Origin: Candidatus Omnitrophota bacterium | Lineage (GTDB): Bacteria; NPL-UPA2; BS750m-G34 | Assembly (NCBI GenBank): GCA_016783345.1 | Contig: JADHWT010000002.1 | Span: 1-34,244 of the forward strand | Length of the DNA stretch: 34,244 nt | Reading direction: 5' to 3' | In this document: piece after piece, positions 3,786 to 30,032 of the stretch | Numbering within the stretch: position 1 is the first letter of the stretch | How the letters are laid out: every line of letters starts with the position of its first letter | Position numbers and translations under genes: made by a program | Notes under the pieces: model-generated | Told to the model about the DNA's origin: nothing | Database searches by the model: none | Seen by the model: only the letters and a program-made list of their open reading frames with translations

Positions 3786-5069
3786 ATGCGTTCAGGAAAA
3801 AGTAAAGTCGGCCTTATCGGGCTTGGCACTGTTGGTAAGAGTGTTGTGAAGCTCTGGCCCAGGGCCGATGGTATTATCTTAAAACGAATAGTAGATAAAG
3901 ATAAGAAAAAAGGGGACAGCGCCCTTTTTTCAACTAAGCCCGATGACATTTTAAATGACCCTGAGATTGATATAGTTATCGAATTGATTGGCGGCATAAA
4001 TGACGCGTATCGTTATATAAAATCTGCCATAGAGAAGGGGAAAAATGTCGTTACAGCTAATAAGGCGCTGCTTGCCTTGAAGGGTGAGGAGCTTGAGAAA
4101 CTGGCCTTAGCAAAAGGTGTTTCCCTCGGGTATGAGGCGAGCGTGTGTGCCGGCATACCGATTATTCGGGGAATTCGAGAAGGTCTTGCAGCAAACAGGA
4201 TAAGGTCTATCTACGGCATAATCAACGGGACTGCCAATTTTATCCTTTCTGCTATGGAGGAAGAAGGTATAGGTTTTGCCCGCGCATTATCCGAGGCGCA
4301 GGAGCAGGGATTCGCCGAAAGTAATCCTACCCTTGATATTGACGGACTTGATTCCCAGCATAAACTCGCTATACTCGCACGTCTCTCTTTTAAGACATCT
4401 GTGAAATTGTCCGATATCTATGTAGAAGGTATAAGGAGAATTACTCATAGTGATATAACCTATGCGAGAGAGCTTGGTTATAGTATTAAACTCTTAGCCA
4501 TTGCAAAAGCAGAAGGAAAGAGACTTGACGCAAGGGTCCATCCAACCCTTATTTCTAAAGACAATCTCCTCTCCTCGGTTCGCGGTATCCACAATGCCTG
4601 CTTTCTCGAAGGAGATGCCTGCGGCAAGATGGTATTCTATGGCCAGGGCGCAGGTGGGCTGCCCACTGCAAGTGCGATCCTGAGCGATGTAAAAGCCATT
4701 GCTTCAGAAAAGAGGGGACTGTTCCAGATGTCATCCTCCGGCAAGGTGCTCGAAGAGTGCTTGACCGGGGGATCCAGTAGAATCGGGATTGTCCCCATCG
4801 ACGAGCTTTTCACCCGCTACTATGTCCGTTTTTCCGCAATAGACAAACCCGGGGTCCTTGCCAGGATATGTGATATACTGGGCAAGCACAATATAAGTAT
4901 TGTCAGTGTCATCCAGAAGGAGCGCAGCGGCACCAGAGGTGTCCCTATTGTCATGATGACCCATAAGGCCAGAGAATCCAGCATGCGCAAGGCCATCTCC
5001 TCTATTGATAGACTGAATGTAGTTAAAGAAAAAAGTCTATTCATCAGGGTTGAGGAGGTTGAAGATTAA
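3786..5069 (+). CDS. hom: homoserine dehydrogenase with C-terminal ACT domain
   Basis: N-terminal GLIGLGTVG Rossmann motif, a central YEASVCAGIPII segment, and an ACT-like C-terminus. Adjacent to thrC. Confidence 0.9.
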   Translation: MRSGKSKVGLIGLGTVGKSVVKLWPRADGIILKRIVDKDKKKGDSALFSTKPDDILNDPEIDIVIELIGGINDAYRYIKSAIEKGKNVVTANKALLALKGEELEKLALAKGVSLGYEASVCAGIPIIRGIREGLAANRIRSIYGIINGTANFILSAMEEEGIGFARALSEAQEQGFAESNPTLDIDGLDSQHKLAILARLSFKTSVKLSDIYVEGIRRITHSDITYARELGYSIKLLAIAKAEGKRLDARVHPTLISKDNLLSSVRGIHNACFLEGDACGKMVFYGQGAGGLPTASAILSDVKAIASEKRGLFQMSSSGKVLEECLTGGSSRIGIVPIDELFTRYYVRFSAIDKPGVLARICDILGKHNISIVSVIQKERSGTRGVPIVMMTHKARESSMRKAISSIDRLNVVKEKSLFIRVEEVED

Positions 5070-9996: not shown

Positions 9997-10024
9997 TTGA
10001 CATAGAAAGGATAGGTGATAGAAT
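9997..10024 (+). promoter_or_regulatory. sigma70-type promoter of the riboflavin operon
   Basis: TTGACA (9997-10002), a 16-nt spacer, then extended -10 TGATAGAAT (TAGAAT at 10019-10024). This places the TSS about 7 nt upstream of riboswitch P1. Confidence 0.6.
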
Positions 10025-10031
10025 TAAAGTG

Positions 10032-10180
10032 TTCTTCAGGGCAGGGTGAAATTCCCGACCGGCGGTAAAAGCCCGCCAGCCCCGAACCAGATTTGGTTCA
10101 GGGCAGACCCGTTGGAATTACGGGGCCGACAGTAAGCCCCCGCATCAGTAAAGGGGGATAAAGTCTGGATGAAAGAAGAA
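10032..10180 (+). ncRNA. FMN riboswitch (RFN element) aptamer
   Basis: P1 TTCTTC (10032-10037) pairs with GAAGAA (10175-10180). Conserved cores are present: AGGGCAGGGTGAAATTCCCGACCGGCGGTAAAAGCCCGC ... GGAATTACGGGGCCGACAGTAA ... AAAGTCTGGATGAAAGAAGA. Lies upstream of ribE. Confidence 0.9.
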
Positions 10181-10194
10181 AGAATAGAATTCTG

Positions 10195-10220
10195 CCCGAA
10201 GATAACCTTCGGGTTTTTTT
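10195..10220 (+). terminator. intrinsic terminator (expression platform of the FMN riboswitch)
   Basis: CCCGAAG (10195-10201), loop ATAAC, CTTCGGG (10207-10213), then T7 (10214-10220). Confidence 0.75.
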
Positions 10221-10856
10221 ATGTTTACCGGATTAATTGAAGAAACAGGCGAGATAAATAGCCTCAGGACCGAGACTGCAGGCAGGGCCCTGTTTGTAAG
10301 GGGTGAAGAGGTCACTAAGTCTTTAAAGATTGGCGAGAGCGTTGCTGTAGACGGCGTATGTCTTACAGTTACAGAGATTAAAAAAAATATATTTAAGGTC
10401 TTTCTAAGTCATGAAACCCTTGCGTGCACTAATCTCGGAAAAGCAAGAATCGGGACTAAGGTAAATCTCGAGAGGGCAATAGCCTTTGGCGATAGAATGG
10501 GCGGTCATCTTGTTACAGGGCATATTGATGCCATCGGCAGGATTGTCACGATCAGGAGGCTTTCTAAAACTTTTGAGATAGAGATAGATATACCGAAGGA
10601 TGACTTACGTCTTGTCGTGCCTAAAGGTTCTATTGCCGTTGACGGCGTGAGCATGACCATTGCCTCACTTAAAAATACTATAATAAAAATAGTTATCATC
10701 CCTCACACGGCAGCGATGACAACCCTTGGAAGAAAAAAGAGGGCTCAAGGTGACAAGGTAAATTTAGAATATGATATAATCGGGAAATATGTGCAAAAAT
10801 TGGGACTGACTCCGAAGGTGTCTGTCCCTTTTTTGCGGAAAGCTAATGAAATTTAA
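10221..10856 (+). CDS. ribE: riboflavin synthase alpha chain
   Basis: Canonical N-terminus [12 protein letters not shown] and an internal duplicate ([12 protein letters not shown]...[10 protein letters not shown]). Confidence 0.93.
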
Positions 10857-12039
10857 TTCCATTGCTGAAATAATAGCGGACATAAAGAAAGGCCGTCTTG
10901 TCATTATTGTAGATGATGAGGCCAGGGAAAACGAGGGGGACCTCATTATGGCTGCCTCTCGTGTAACCCCTAAGAAGATCAATTTTATGGCTACATTTGG
11001 CCGCGGACTTATCTGCACGCCACTCACTGGTGATAGACTCGATAGCCTCGGCTTAAAGGCTATGGTAGAAAATAATACTGAGAGGATGGATACAGCCTTT
11101 ACTATCTCTGTTGATGCAAAAAAAGGTGTAACTACCGGTATATCTGCCCATGACAGGGCTCTTACTATAAAGACCTTACTTAATCCAAAGACAACTCCTG
11201 ATGACCTTGCCAGGCCCGGCCATATATTTCCTATACGGGCGAAGGAAGGAGGAGTCCTCACCAGGTCCGGTCATAGTGAGGCTTCAGTAGACCTTGCCAG
11301 ACTTGCCGGACTTTACCCTGCAGGAGTTATATGCGAGATTATGAATGAGGATGGGACAATGGCAAGGACCCCGGACCTCATCAGATTCAGCCGCAGACAC
11401 GGACTTAAGATTAGCACTATTACCGACCTTATTAGTTACAGGAGCCGTAAGGAGAAATTAGTCAGGCGTCTGGTTAGTGTGAAACTGCCTACTAACTTTG
11501 GCGATTTTAAATTGGTAGTCTATGAGGCATCGGTTGGAGAGAGTCCGCATCTTGCCCTGGTCAAGGGAGATGTGAGGGGTAAGAAAAACGTTATGGTCAG
11601 GGTCCATTCTGAATGTCTCACAGGAGATGTCTTTCATTCTAAGCGTTGTGATTGCGGTGACCAGCTCAGGGAATCCCTTCGTATAATTTCAGATGTCGGG
11701 TGTGGAGTCCTTGTCTATATGCGGCAGGAAGGAAGGGGTATCGGGCTTAGAGAAAAACTCAAGGCCTATGGTCTTCAGGAAAAAGGGCTCGATACAGTTG
11801 AGGCCAATATAAAACTCGGGTTTGCACCGGACCTTAGGGACTATGGTCTTGGCGCGCAGATTTTAGTAGATCTGGGACTTAGTTCTATCCAGCTTTTAAC
11901 AAATAATCCCAGGAAGATAGTCGGCCTTAGCGGATATGGGCTTAAGGTGACAAAACGCATCCCGATTAAAATCAAGCCGCATCGTTTTAATATGCATTAT
12001 TTAAAGACAAAGGAAGAAAAGTTAGGACATTTACTTTAG
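10846..12039 (+). CDS. ribBA: bifunctional 3,4-dihydroxy-2-butanone-4-phosphate synthase / GTP cyclohydrolase II
   Basis: [12 protein letters not shown] (DHBP synthase) and [19 protein letters not shown] (GCH II zinc site). Confidence 0.95.
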
Positions 12040-12059
12040 TGTATAGTGAATGGTAGATG

Positions 12060-12155
12060 TCCCTTGTCGCAGAAGATGTTGCGACTTCGGGATCAATTCG
12101 ACCATACAATTTATGTACACGTTGTTTCATAAATTGTGGTCTCATTGAAAGGAGG
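12060..12155 (+). promoter_or_regulatory. repeated two-hairpin leader element, copy 1 (short variant), ending in the ribH SD
   Basis: TCCCTTGTCGCAGAAGATGTTGCGACTTCGGGATCAATTCGACCATACAATTTATG...CATAAATTGTGGTCTCATTGAAAGGAGG. Shares its core with copies at 17502, 26491 and 29908. Confidence 0.85.
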
Positions 12156-12159
12156 ACGT

Positions 12160-12630
12160 ATGGTAAAGGTTATAGAAGGAGAATTGGTAGTCAAGGGAAA
12201 GAGGTTCGGCTTAGTGCTCAGTCGCTTCAATGATTTTATTACCCAGCGGCTCAAGGATGGCGCAGTGGACACACTGCTCCGGCATGGGGTAAAAGATGGA
12301 GAGATTGAGATGGCCTGGGTTCCGGGTTCGTTTGAGATACCGGCTATAGCATTAAAAATGGCCAGGACCGGTCGCTATGATGCTATACTATGTCTCGGGT
12401 GTGTGATCAGAGGTGATACCCCGCATTTTGATTATATAGCGTCAGAGGTAGCTAAAGGCATAGCCCAGATTAACCTCACAACCCCTATCCCTGCTATATT
12501 CGGAATCATCACCGCTGATACTATTGAGCAGGCTGTGGAGAGGGCCGGGACCAAGGCAGGAAATAAAGGCAGGGACGCCGCCCTTTCTGCTATAGAGATG
12601 GTGAATTTGTATAGCAAGATTAAAAAATAG
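12160..12630 (+). CDS. ribH: 6,7-dimethyl-8-ribityllumazine synthase
   Basis: [14 protein letters not shown] motif. I place the start at ATG 12160 (MVKVIEG...), 4 nt after AAGGAGG. The ORF-track GTG at 12136 lies inside the conserved hairpin of the repeat. Confidence 0.92.
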
Positions 12631-12640
12631 TTAATGACTT

Positions 12641-13048
12641 ATGGGAAAGCGCAGAATAGCCAGGGAACTGGCATTAAAGATTCTCTATCAAGTAGAGATA
12701 AGCGGGAGTCCTCTGGAATCAGTCTTTACTGATTTTTGGGAAAATCATGTCTATCAATCTGAGATACGGGGGTTTACCGAGAGTCTTGCTAAAGGGGCTG
12801 TAGAGCATCGGGAAGATATTGACAAAAAAATTTCAACATATGCGGATAACTGGGACATGTCCCGTATGGCTATAATAGACAGGGTGCTTCTCCGCCTGGC
12901 TGCTTATGAAATTCAATATCGAGATGACATACCGCATGCAGTCAGTATTAATGAGGCATTGGAGATAGCCAAGAAATACAGCACCGGTGAGTCAAGCCGT
13001 TTTATCAATGGTGTGCTGGACAGAGTGGCCAAGGAACAAAAAGGTTGA
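12641..13048 (+). CDS. nusB: transcription antitermination factor NusB
   Basis: RRIARELALKILYQ N-terminus and the classic ribH-nusB adjacency. Confidence 0.92.
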   Translation: MGKRRIARELALKILYQVEISGSPLESVFTDFWENHVYQSEIRGFTESLAKGAVEHREDIDKKISTYADNWDMSRMAIIDRVLLRLAAYEIQYRDDIPHAVSINEALEIAKKYSTGESSRFINGVLDRVAKEQKG

Positions 13049-14647: not shown

Positions 14648-14962
14648 ATGATAGATAAAATTCGACAAGCTTTTAGAGAAAGACGATATGAATATAGTTT
14701 ACACGCTGTTGACCAAAGCATTTTGCGCTATATCCTTAGCAAGGAAGTTGAGGAAGTGATTGATAATGGGGAGATAATAGAAGATTATCCTGAAGATAAA
14801 TATGGTTCTAGTTGTTTAATTTATGGAACAACTATTCAAGGCAGGTCTTTACATATTCAATGTTCATATCCTTCAAGGCCGAAAATAAAGATTATTACAT
14901 TGTATCAACCAGATCCAAAAGATTGGATAGACTATAAGAAGAGGAGGGAAGAGAAAAAATGA
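14648..14962 (+). CDS. DUF4258-family putative toxin
   Basis: 104 aa. The YSLHAVDQ...R.I...EVEEVIDNGEIIEDYPEDKYG.SCLIYG...GR.LHI pattern is typical of DUF4258. ATGA overlap with the following zinc-finger gene. Confidence 0.72.
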   Translation: MIDKIRQAFRERRYEYSLHAVDQSILRYILSKEVEEVIDNGEIIEDYPEDKYGSSCLIYGTTIQGRSLHIQCSYPSRPKIKIITLYQPDPKDWIDYKKRREEKK

Positions 14963-15186
14963 AGTGTGATCTTTGCGGAGGAAGAGTAAGCGAAGAGAAA
15001 ATCAGTTATACTCTATTCTATGAAGGGCATTGGATTATTGTAGAAAATGTCCCAGCTAAAGTCTGTAATCAATGTGGTGAAAAGCTATTTGACGCGGATA
15101 CAGTAGATCGCCTTCAGGCTACTATTTGGAAAAAGCAAAAACCCGAAAGAAAAATAGAAACACCGGTCTTTAATCTTGCTCATTAG
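14959..15186 (+). CDS. YgiT/MqsA-type zinc-finger putative antitoxin
   Basis: 75 aa with CDLCGG ... VCNQCGE (a CxxC...CxxC zinc ribbon), as in the MqsA N-terminal domain family. Translationally coupled to the upstream ORF. Confidence 0.72.
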   Translation: MKCDLCGGRVSEEKISYTLFYEGHWIIVENVPAKVCNQCGEKLFDADTVDRLQATIWKKQKPERKIETPVFNLAH

Positions 15187-17495: not shown

Positions 17496-17501
17496 GGTAT
17501 G

Positions 17502-17638
17502 TCCCTTGTCGCAGAAGATGTTGAGTAAAATGTTTTCAACTTTTTACTCAACGCGACTTCGGGATTAATTCGACCATACAATTTATGTTCACCTGCCGCT
17601 TTGCGGCGGTTTCATAAATTGTGGTCTCATTAAGGAGG
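17502..17638 (+). promoter_or_regulatory. repeated two-hairpin leader element, copy 2 (longest variant), ending in the SDR gene SD
   Basis: Same core as the other copies. The HP1 extension is GTTGAGTAAAA/TTTTACTCAAC. The HP2 tip is expanded by CTGCCGC-TTT-GCGGCGG. Confidence 0.85.
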
Positions 17639-17644
17639 TAATTT

Positions 17645-19648: not shown

Positions 19649-19668
19649 AATTCTGAAGACCAATTTTG

Positions 19669-19709
19669 CTTGATTATATAGGAAAGTATATAAAGTGGAC
19701 TTAAGCTAT
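19669..19709 (+). repeat. 41-nt repeat, copy A (37/41 identical to 26001-26041)
   Basis: CTTGATTATATAGGAAAGTATATAAAGTGGACTTAAGCTAT versus CTTGATTGTATAGGAAAGGATAGAAAGTGGACTTGAGCTAT. Confidence 0.85.
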
Positions 19710-19727
19710 CAGCCAAAGGCTGATTTG
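19708..19727 (+). terminator. hairpin after pdxB (weak terminator candidate)
   Basis: ATCAGCC-AAA-GGCTGAT (19708-19724) followed by TTT. An overlapping alternative pairing AGCCAAA/TTTGGCT (19711-19730) also exists. Confidence 0.3.
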
Positions 19728-26000: not shown

Positions 26001-26041
26001 CTTGATTGTATAGGAAAGGATAGAAAGTGGACTTGAGCTAT
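26001..26041 (+). repeat. 41-nt repeat, copy B (covers the RBS, GTG start and first 5 codons of the RsbW-like gene)
   Basis: 37/41 identical to 19669-19709. Confidence 0.85.
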
Positions 26042-26449: not shown

Positions 26450-26490
26450 GTAGTAAGTAATAAGTTATAAAAGCTTACTATAATGGAGTA

Positions 26491-26607
26491 TCCCTTGTCG
26501 CAGAAGATGTTGAGTAAAATTTCTTCGATTTTTTACTCAACGCGACTTCGGGATTAATTCGAGCATACACTTTATGAAACATAAAGTGCGCTCTCATTAA
26601 AAGGAGG
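26491..26607 (+). promoter_or_regulatory. repeated two-hairpin leader element, copy 3 (covarying variant), ending in the STAS gene SD
   Basis: Same HP1 as copy 4. HP2 carries two compensated base-pair swaps and an AAA tip. A TATAAT at 26479-26484 ends 6 nt upstream. Confidence 0.85.
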
Positions 26608-28735: not shown

Positions 28736-29866
28736 ATGAGGCCTATAATTTGTGACCATGGGTTAATGCGCAGGATTAACCGTGTAAGGATCCTTAACCT
28801 GCTTCGCTTACGGGACTCACTTTCACGTATTGAACTGACCCGGGAGACCGGGCTTGACGGGAAGACTGTGACAAACCTTACCCAGGAGTTATTGGCTAAG
28901 AGGTTAATAATTTCAGATGGATATGAAACCTCAAGCGGCGGAAGGAGACCGGAATTATTAAGGCTAAATAGCAATCTAAAACATACCATCGGGATTTATC
29001 TGGACCCGGATAAAATTATCGGGGTCCTGGTTGATTTAAGAGGAAATATTCTAAAAGAAGAAATTTTTTCTTTATTTAAAATCTCCAAAAGAAAATATAT
29101 CTTGTCAGGCATTAAAAAAATTACGCAATCTCTAATAGCTTGTACCACCCGCTCCAGGCTCCTCGGCTTGGGATTTGTGTTTCCCGGGATAATCGATAGG
29201 GATAAGGAGACTATTATTCAGTCTTCAAATCTACCTGTTCTTGAAGGGATAAGGATAAAAGAGTATTTTAGAAAAAATTTTTCATTACCTATAGAGATAG
29301 AAGACTCCTCCCGGGCAATGGCATTGGGAGAGAAATGGTTTGGCAGGGCTCAAGGCATAGACAATTTCGTGTTTATAGAGCTGGGTGTAGGAATTGGCTG
29401 TGCAATACTTAGTAGAAGTCAGCTTCATTATGGGGTGAGTCTCAGTGCAGGAGAGCTCGGCCATACTGTGGTAGATATAAATGGACCCCGTTGCAGATGC
29501 GGGCATAAAGGGTGCCTTGAGACAGTAGCCTCTAGCAGGAAGATACTGGAAAAGATATCCGGAAAGGGCAGGAAGGAGGCACAGAAGATTATTGCAGATG
29601 CAGGGTATTATATTGGTGTAGGAGTGAGCAACCTTGTCAACCTCTTAAATCCTTCCCATCTTATTATAGGTGGGATAGGTGGGGAGCTAAGTCTGGTAGG
29701 AGAAACTTTATTTAAGGCTATAGATAGAGCTATGAAAAAATATACTGTATCTTCATCATATAATGCGGTTCAGGTTATCCCGGCAGCCCTTGGAGAGAAA
29801 GGAGGTGCATTAGGCGCAGCTACACTTATTTTAAAAAAGGTATTTGAGTTAAAAGAATTGGAGTAA
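28736..29866 (+). CDS. ROK family transcriptional regulator (NagC/XylR-like)
   Basis: N-terminal wHTH (RINRVRILNLLR....SRIELTRETGLDGKTVTNLTQEL). ROK zinc motif GHTVVD..GP.CRCGHKGCLE. No obvious SD, so the start is uncertain. Confidence 0.85.
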   Translation: MRPIICDHGLMRRINRVRILNLLRLRDSLSRIELTRETGLDGKTVTNLTQELLAKRLIISDGYETSSGGRRPELLRLNSNLKHTIGIYLDPDKIIGVLVDLRGNILKEEIFSLFKISKRKYILSGIKKITQSLIACTTRSRLLGLGFVFPGIIDRDKETIIQSSNLPVLEGIRIKEYFRKNFSLPIEIEDSSRAMALGEKWFGRAQGIDNFVFIELGVGIGCAILSRSQLHYGVSLSAGELGHTVVDINGPRCRCGHKGCLETVASSRKILEKISGKGRKEAQKIIADAGYYIGVGVSNLVNLLNPSHLIIGGIGGELSLVGETLFKAIDRAMKKYTVSSSYNAVQVIPAALGEKGGALGAATLILKKVFELKELE

Positions 29867-29872
29867 TGGTAG

Positions 29873-29898
29873 CCGCAGGCTTTAGCCTGCGGTAATTT
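29873..29898 (+). terminator. hairpin terminator candidate after the ROK gene
   Basis: CCGCAGGC (29873-29880), loop TTTA, GCCTGCGG (29885-29892), then TAATTT (poor T-run). Confidence 0.5.
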
Positions 29899-29907
29899 AA
29901 AGGAGTA

Positions 29908-30032
29908 TCCCTTGTCGCAGAAGATGTTGAGTAAAATTTCTTCGATTTTTTACTCAACGCGACTTCGGGATTAATTCGACCATACAATTTATGTGCACGT
30001 TGTTTCATAAATTGTGGTCTCATTAAAAGGAG
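29908..30032 (+). promoter_or_regulatory. repeated two-hairpin leader element, copy 4 (canonical), ending in the DegT gene SD
   Basis: TCCCTTGTCGCAGAAGATGTTGAGTAAAATTTCTTCGATTTTTTACTCAACGCGACTTCGGGATTAATTCGACCATACAATTTATGTGCACGTTGTTTCATAAATTGTGGTCTCATTAAAAGGAG. Confidence 0.85.

Follow-up and report, generated by a model that had tools for sequence, protein, structure and literature searches.

Short, gene-free, multi-copy and lineage-restricted repeats have been described in several bacteria, among them the Correia elements (CREE) of Neisseria, ERIC of Yersinia and the BOX, RUP and SPRITE repeats of pneumococcus (PMC2649163, PMC10969869, PMC3049150). Repeats of this type vary between strains, lie in intergenic or intercistronic regions, occur in modular long and short forms and give transcripts with stable hairpins; co-transcribed Correia and ERIC copies are reported substrates of RNase III or RNase E (PMC10969869, PMC3049150). 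The bcr1-bcr18 families of the Bacillus cereus group are similarly intergenic, with conserved secondary structure and with mobility in some families, and are often transcribed within untranslated regions (UTRs), including 5′ UTRs, and between cistrons (PMC3446304). The element described here lies between ribBA and ribH in a 34,244-nucleotide (nt) stretch of a Candidatus Omnitrophota genome (assembly GCA_016783345.1, contig JADHWT010000002.1, positions 1 to 34,244, forward strand), which we call the window. It resembles both groups of repeats in form and distribution and, by analogy, appears to behave like co-transcribed bacterial interspersed repeats.

The differences are nevertheless clear. 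In contrast to repeats of the Correia/ERIC/BOX type, the Omnitrophota element has neither terminal inverted repeats nor a regular target-site duplication, consists of two independent hairpins rather than a single end-to-end hairpin, and is found in one orientation only, a strong Shine-Dalgarno (SD) sequence lying 0-2 nt beyond its right end; we know of no cognate insertion sequence (IS). The bcr repeats belong to a different phylum and are unrelated to it in sequence, bcr1 is reported to have a TTTAT target duplication, and to our knowledge no SD-adjacent placement has been reported for any of them. Palindrome-associated elements derived from IS200/IS605 and repetitive extragenic palindromes (REP/REPIN) share with the Omnitrophota element a hairpin-based architecture, strand or orientation specificity, a short conserved sequence at one end and the lack of a consistent duplication. 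Within the IS200/IS605 family, however, one transposase binds both ends, and REPs typically lie 3′ of genes rather than 5′ of an SD, whereas the Omnitrophota hairpins are dissimilar, the base at the junction is inconstant, and the window and flanking loci yielded no Y1 transposase. The intercistronic RNase III sites of phage T7 and 5′ stabiliser hairpins are repeated irregular hairpins just 5′ of the SD of the next cistron, and in this nearness to a strong SD in a polycistronic mRNA they recall the Omnitrophota element. Such sites are built into the expression programme of a single genome, whereas the Omnitrophota hairpins vary by strain and are at most candidate cleavage sites. The distinguishing feature of the element is its strict, oriented placement against strong ribosome-binding sites.

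The element represents a previously undescribed structured repeat family of Omnitrophota that is gene-free, young, insertion-polymorphic and SD-adjacent. It is probably a mobile or recombinationally spreading repeat resembling a MITE (miniature inverted-repeat transposable element), with the ribH copy carried as a passenger in a transcript controlled by flavin mononucleotide (FMN). The evidence comes first from alleles of the same junction. Exact look-up of the RibH protein in public assemblies, followed by comparison of the junctions, identified loci from four samples (L014, L015, L016 and L020; loci outside the window are designated in this way) with an identical RibH and flanks 96-99% identical, in which a 12-nt spacer without the element separates ribBA from ribH. 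This empty junction reads ...CATTTACTTTAG/AAAGGAGGAGTT/ATGGTAAAG, that is, CTTTAG/AAAGGAGGAGTT/ATG. In the window the spacer is 120 nt, with 108 nt between the TAG and AAAGGAGG, and a locus 96.3% identical to the window (L046) also has the 120-nt spacer with the element present. The spacer is an unrelated 67 nt in a genome with 91% RibH identity (L048-L051; ~79-86% nucleotide identity) and an unrelated 91-nt palindrome in one with 88% RibH identity (L052; ~75% nucleotide identity). The first-pass annotation had by implication read the element as a conserved functional, intercistronic regulatory leader of the rib operon, and the comparison of ribBA-ribH spacers among related genomes had been named beforehand as one that could overturn this. 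Those spacers proved to lack the element or to be unrelated, and the claim is not supported.

Empty orthologues were also found for two further copies. At the cobU-SDR junction, L048 reads AAAATAA/GGAGGTAATTT/ATG with an 11-nt spacer; the window adds 138 nt after the TAA and keeps the native GGAGGTAATTT at 17634-17644 beside the copy. At the ROK-DegT junction, L054 reads TAA/AAAGGAGGAGAAGTAAA/ATG with a 17-nt spacer, compared with 172 nt in the window. The segment from the SD to the ATG is kept in the filled alleles and is identical at the SDR site; since it is already present in the empty alleles, it is native and was not carried in by the element. The empty orthologous sites imply that the element is a recent, derived insertion at these positions. 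Presence and absence at three sites (ribH, SDR and DegT) are as expected of a MITE, as is a short (~90-135 nt), dispersed, gene-free sequence in four copies per 34 kb. A leader RNA would be conserved at orthologous positions, and at the three sites the element is absent or replaced.

Contigs in other assemblies are broken at the edges of the element. Four (L012, L013, L017 and L019) begin 1 nt ahead of the ribH ATG, L018 starts at 12147, L026 stops at the cobU stop codon and L027 stops inside the element, a pattern expected of repeated or polymorphic sequence. Between the ribH SD and ATG, the four bases (12156-12159) are ACGT in the filled alleles (window, L046 and L047) and AGTT in the empty ones. 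L018 has AGTT as its only difference from the window in 1177 nt, and it is broken off precisely at the element's right edge; filled and empty alleles probably coexist in this one sample. Viewed over related genomes, the ribBA-ribH junction is a hot spot, with spacers of 12, 67, 91 and 120 nt, the three long ones each containing a palindrome of its own.

The core of the ribBA-ribH copy (12057-12148) is a short form of a two-hairpin element (hairpins HP1 and HP2; Table 1). In HP1 a second helix, P2 (GTCGC 12066-12070 / GCGAC 12081-12085), closes a 10-nt loop, AGAAGATGTT (12071-12080). Exactly 30 nt, the HP1 extension, are absent from this copy and present in the three other window copies. The first-pass annotation had described both the missing extension and the closing GTCGC/GCGAC helix correctly, and its view that the extension is dispensable is right; five of the eight aligned copies have the extension. 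It had also called the ribH copy a minimal variant; this is accurate for its form, but the short form is not particular to ribH and is also found in L003, L011, L046 and L047. The extension is a separate 11-bp hairpin, with a different sequence in L002, and brings long-form HP1 to 20 bp. HP2 is an irregular 18-bp helix with a 9-bp inner helix (12107-12115 / 12128-12136) and conserved internal loops, TC/TC and ATA/T.

Table 1. Positions of the ribBA-ribH element, its parts, the other window copies and the FMN riboswitch (window coordinates)
Feature	Position	Strand	Remarks
FMN riboswitch of the ribE-ribBA-ribH-nusB transcript	10028-10184	+	RF00050, 100.2 bits
Whole inserted block	12040-12147	+	108 nt between ribBA stop TAG (12037-12039) and ribH SD; absent in empty-allele strains
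TATAGT, -10-like hexamer within inserted block	12042-12047	+	Read from sequence; no matching -35 found; not called as promoter
HP1, minimal form	12060-12092	+	P1 TCCC 12060-12063 / GGGA 12089-12092
HP2	12093-12148	+	Outer TCAAT 12093-12097 / ATTGA 12144-12148; middle GACC 12100-12103 / GGTC 12138-12141
Native strong SD AAAGGAGG	12148-12155	+	Followed by 4-nt spacer and ribH ATG 12160 (feature with start codon, 12148-12162); SD also in empty alleles
Long-form copy, cobU/SDR gap	17496-17633	+	138-nt insertion relative to orthologous site L048; TAAGG at both junctions
Long-form copy, sub-family B, 5′ of STAS-domain gene	~26489-26600	+	98.3% identical to csp-linked copy of CSMAG_2088
Long-form copy, 5′ of DegT-family aminotransferase gene	~29906-30026	+	AAAGGAG flanks at 29899-29905 and 30026-30032

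The fold was evaluated in a structure alignment of eight different copies, the four of the window plus four from elsewhere. The two hairpins of the model comprise 38 pairs, and 98.9% of their cells can pair, compared with 36-46% when the partners are slid by 1-3 columns. Changes on both sides are found at seven pairs, six of them in HP2, against 0-1 in the slid controls, which is the covariation that a leader RNA would show, and single-sequence folds gave z = -3.2 and -5.0. The first-pass annotation had drawn attention to TCAAT/ATTGA in place of TTAAT/ATTAA in the outer HP2 helix and had called it a compensatory change. The letters are as it gave them and the paired change is real; the pair it had flagged is U:A in five copies, C:G in two and U:G in one. 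The change marks repeat sub-families, however, and gives no evidence of selection on a rib-specific RNA. Three HP2 sub-families can be told apart: GACC/GGTC with CAAT/ATTG, GAGC/GCTC with CACT/AGTG, and CGAC/GTCG with CAAG/CTTG. Collectively, the paired changes are sub-family marks within a repeat whose hairpins are preserved. Across the eight aligned copies, HP1 shows no change in P1, P2 or its loop; the last loop position is C in L046 and L047. The antisense strand folds as well as the sense strand, with no sense bias, and the structure thus gives no hint of the strand, or of the nucleic acid (RNA or DNA), on which selection acts.

The second line of evidence is the relationship to the SD. 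All four window copies are on the + strand and each runs into an SD and then a start codon (ribH ATG 12160, SDR 17645, STAS 26612 and DegT 30039). In every copy homology stops at CTCATT(A/G), followed by (AA)AGGAG(G), and the sequence beyond is gene-specific; the right end lies 0-2 nt from a strong SD, in one orientation, in every copy seen. A strong SD is present in four of four element-linked genes and in three of three empty alleles, and AAGGAG or GGAGG at a suitable distance occurs in only ~2-6 of the 32 other window genes; a crude estimate of finding a strong SD in the three empty alleles by chance is ≤0.007. The copies at STAS, csp and nagB lie in long intergenic regions and also abut the SD, so that a tolerance of insertion confined to the stretch from a stop codon to an SD does not explain the placement. 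Taken with the uniform orientation, this link suggests the SD region as the target or recombination site.

The repeat is confined to a narrow clade of Candidatus Omnitrophota and was found only in this species, a sister metagenome-assembled genome (MAG) and one metagenome contig. Among 185,579 species-representative genomes, a 21-mer from HP1 was found in one only, the Candidatus Omnitrophota MAG CSMAG_2088, on three contigs. Over 1.1 kb of orthologous coding DNA this MAG shares 91-94% identity with the window, and its csp-linked copy is 98.3% identical to the STAS-linked window copy over 118 nt, above the 91-94% for the genomes. Within the window, a 42-nt HP2 core gave two matches at ≤3 mismatches, with none expected in shuffled sequence. 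An exact-word scan of metagenomes returned one true match (L011) and seven other hits that were due to chance. A covariance model built from the eight distinct copies detected no fifth copy in the window and none in ~50 kb from relatives (72-85% nucleotide identity), a set that included the orthologues of two occupied sites. Rfam 15 at the gathering threshold returned the FMN riboswitch and tRNAs only, with no match to the element, and at E values up to 10 gave the element only chance-level hits. Viral contigs gave chance 18-mer hits only, with no hit for a second motif, and blastn against plasmids and phages found no match to the element. The genes 3′ of the copies encode RibH, SDR, STAS, DegT, CSD, NagB-like, FabZ and an unknown 117-residue protein, and do not form the functionally coherent set that a leader RNA would serve. 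No open frame is common to all copies.

Several observations weigh against a MITE-like repeat. The junction repeats are uneven, measuring 5 nt at SDR (TAAGG), 7 nt at DegT (AAAGGAG) and no more than 1-3 nt at ribH, and the left boundary varies, extending 18 nt further at ribH and having a terminator-like hairpin at DegT; on these two grounds transposition is no more than a candidate mechanism. The hairpins are internal, and the ends are not complementary to each other as terminal inverted repeats would be. Neither the window nor the flanking loci contain a transposase or recombinase gene, only housekeeping genes, and the copies were counted in 34 kb plus short contigs. The 12-nt ribH allele could conceivably have arisen by precise deletion rather than being the state before insertion. 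The invariant HP1, several invariant unpaired segments and the conserved internal loops of HP2 would also fit a specific RNA-protein interaction.

In the model that we infer for the mobility of the repeat, its co-transcription and any effect on expression, the element would have entered the ribH site recently, as its presence in some strains and absence in others suggests. It would insert one way round, directly 5′ of a pre-existing strong SD, either after an upstream stop codon or within a 5′ UTR, and leave the native SD-to-ATG segment intact. HP1 and HP2 are kept as independent hairpins, with sub-families that differ by paired changes. At ribH the element would most likely be transcribed as a passenger within the FMN-riboswitch-controlled mRNA. 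The ribBA-ribH gap would have grown from 12 to 120 nt with stable hairpins; the 12-nt gap probably allowed translational coupling, which the insertion should abolish, and local mRNA processing or stability may change as well. Any regulatory effect of the element would be secondary. A bolder version of this model, which we offer tentatively and consider somewhat unlikely, is that the repeat homes to ribosome-binding sites, taking the strong SD (AAGGAG/GGAGG) as its target, inserting in one orientation and installing a ready-made structured leader. Such homing may use a hairpin- or guide-based mechanism, and the 5′ UCCCUU of the element is nearly complementary to the SD.

It is possible, at odds similar to those of SD homing, that the hairpins have been exapted as an intercistronic processing or stabilising site, by analogy with RNase III substrates and 5′ stabilisers, that uncouples ribH-nusB from ribE-ribBA. 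Such a role would be plausible in view of what is reported for Correia, ERIC and bcr repeats (PMC10969869, PMC3049150, PMC3446304). The length of the irregular 18-bp HP2 with its conserved internal loops, and of the 20-bp long-form HP1, is compatible with RNase III, and every copy is directly 5′ of an SD. Strains without the element have an identical RibH and SD, however, which makes the element dispensable, and the stability of the fold shows no bias toward the sense strand.

With regard to how the repeat spreads, two specific routes can be compared, both of them improbable and about equally so. In the first, the element is a non-autonomous derivative of a hairpin-recognising single-strand transposon (IS200/IS605 or REP/RAYT-like), inserting strand-specifically 3′ of CTCCTT, the complement of the SD, without target-site duplication. 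Hairpins near both ends without terminal inverted repeats, the lack of a consistent target duplication, the strict orientation, the short conserved sequence abutting one end only and a covarying pair (columns 90/156) at the boundary between element and flank would all fit such a transposon. The two hairpins of IS200/IS605 elements are alike, whereas HP1 (UCCC/GUCGC stems) and HP2 (GACC plus CAAUUUAUG stems) have no similarity; in addition, the base at the junction varies (CCTCC/TTAATGAG versus CTCCTTT/TAATGAG), as does the left boundary, and the Y1 transposase is missing as noted above. In the second route, spread occurs without a transposase, by template switching or recombination through a flanking purine-rich, SD-like motif (AAAGGAG on the right and a degenerate AA(A/T)GG(A/T)G on the left). 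SD-like microhomologies of varying length (TAAGG, AAAGGAG, TGA or G), a fixed right end with a variable left extent, and the mosaic combination of HP1 and HP2 sub-types, with the 26-kb and 30-kb copies having the same HP1 and different HP2, are consistent with this, as is the L047 contig, which links another locus to ribH through the element. Such events are rare, however, and an unlikely source of at least nine copies; there is nearly no microhomology at the ribH junction, and L047 may be an assembly chimera (2.3x coverage).

Least likely of all, and highly improbable, is a dedicated cis-regulatory leader RNA (protein-binding, thermosensor or riboswitch) defining a post-transcriptional regulon that includes ribH-nusB: its covariation-backed two-hairpin fold, an HP1 sequence and AGAAGAUGUU loop that are invariant over copies and two species, its fixed position abutting the SD, one copy before a cold-shock gene and a 5′ UCCCUU that can pair with the SD instead of P1 are outweighed by its absence from orthologous sites in the same species and close relatives, the unrelated functions downstream, the lack of an Rfam family, a predicted SD accessibility that barely shifts (0.50-0.54 with the element versus 0.71 without it) and sense folds no better than antisense ones.

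The rib operon was examined for elements that bear on transcription through the ribH copy. The first-pass annotation had placed a promoter, an FMN riboswitch and a terminator ahead of the operon, and each was located where it had put them, with the promoter TTGACA-16-TAGAAT at 9997-10024 and a terminator-like hairpin at 10194-10214 after the riboswitch. The operon itself (10028-13048) comprises ribE-ribBA-ribH-nusB and extends to a PHP-domain gene; the window contains no ribD. At or in the ribH copy no terminator-like site and no two-hexamer promoter was called. Neither hairpin is followed by a U-tract, and read-through is thus expected. As judged from the sequence, co-transcription of the ribH copy within the operon mRNA, which the first-pass annotation had favoured, is plausible, and the lone TATAGT could at best give weak transcription.

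The insertion also bears on the ribH start. The listed open reading frame begins at GTG 12136, which sits in the 3′ arm of HP2, inside the inserted element, and an extended RibH is thus impossible in strains that lack the element. All seven RibH homologues compared (70-91% identity) begin at the Met of ATG 12160, none of the seven has a counterpart of the MVSLKGGR extension, and gene callers gave a 156-residue RibH product on nine other contigs. Together with the empty allele, these show the first-pass preference for ATG 12160 over the GTG to be correct.

Several other candidate functions were considered and rejected. A conserved ATG in the HP1 loop opens an upstream open reading frame (uORF; 12076-12132) that encodes MLRLRD followed by a stop in short forms with TTAAT, 16 residues in long forms, whose additional 30 nt keep the frame, and 18 residues in the ribH copy, in which the stop is lost through TCAAT. 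As a small protein this sense uORF was discarded, its length shifting with the TCAAT variant and no SD preceding it, and it is probably meaningless. The antisense frame is broken in the 17-kb copy (c17k), L003 and L011. One publicly gene-called antisense product, P0241 (60-65 residues; 29826-30023 on the - strand; L025 1132-1314), has no database relatives and is spurious, and a profile search with the antisense peptide returned only P0241 itself. An element-borne promoter was rejected: a -10-like box lies ahead of several copies, but two-hexamer promoters were called neither in nor at any window copy, the -10-like box at the SDR site is the end of cobU, and L003 has its own native promoter upstream. 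An SD-sequestering switch was rejected on a predicted SD accessibility that is moderate with or without the element. An operator for a DNA-binding dimer (GTCGC-N10-GCGAC) does not agree with a 30-nt extension that alters the half-site spacing, and an integron attC does not agree with GTTGAGT...ACTCAAC motifs in the wrong order or with flanking genes that are syntenic core genes. A AATGGTAG word to the left of two copies is not enriched in the window and was dropped as a shared feature.

Other repeats and rearrangements were seen near the copies. A terminator-like hairpin, GGTAGCCGCAGGCTTTAGCCTGCGG, at 29868-29892 is just left of the 30-kb copy and also left of the copy in L047 (211-235); an expanded version (L048 4807-4850) constitutes the unrelated 67-nt spacer between ribBA and ribH in the genome whose RibH is 91% identical, and this hairpin may be a further small mobile hairpin. 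In L047 (ERZ24794656, 1211 nt, 2.3x coverage) a CcdA/DsbD_TM-like gene ends next to the terminator-like hairpin and a short form of the element (TTAAT...ATTGA), and these are linked to ribH. The contig reflects either rearrangement through the repeat or chimeric assembly, and in both cases at least one more copy exists at another locus. L002 (4487-4623) and L011 (1172-1318, at the end of a 1318-nt contig) have ~80 nt 5′ of the element in common. In L002 the shared stretch reaches into the beginning of a tRNA gene with divergent orientation (4537-4623), the matching stretch of L011 is not called as a tRNA, and the genes 3′ of the element differ, being that of the 117-residue protein in L002 and FabZ in L011. 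The shared upstream but different downstream sequence suggests that the loci were rearranged at the element.

A second intergenic repeat, CTTGATTRTATAGGAAAGKATAKAAAGTGGACTTRAGCTAT, is present at 19660-19727 and 26001-26041, ~90% identical between the two positions and ~79% identical to a CSMAG_2088 copy (L001 72-139), and could be a promoter or small-RNA motif. A hairpin, CAGCCAAAGGCTG, follows it at 19.7 kb. The 26-kb copy of this second repeat overlaps the listed GTG start (26027) of a HATPase_c_2 gene, a start that may thus be incorrect. At 14648-15186, between the His_Phos_1 and SAM_HAT genes, lies a putative toxin-antitoxin pair (DUF4258 with an MqsA-like antitoxin); it is present in L026 and not in the syntenic region of L048.

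For work on these organisms, the MITE-like repeat has several consequences. The GTG-extended ribH frame is an annotation by-product of the insertion, and short-read metagenomic assemblies of these genomes are fragmented by the element. A false lead is also removed, in that riboflavin control gains no second layer from the structure within the rib operon. Should the SD prove to be the target, such specificity would be unusual among bacterial mobile elements, and the filled and empty alleles would provide a natural experiment on how the insertion of hairpins between translationally coupled genes affects operon expression.

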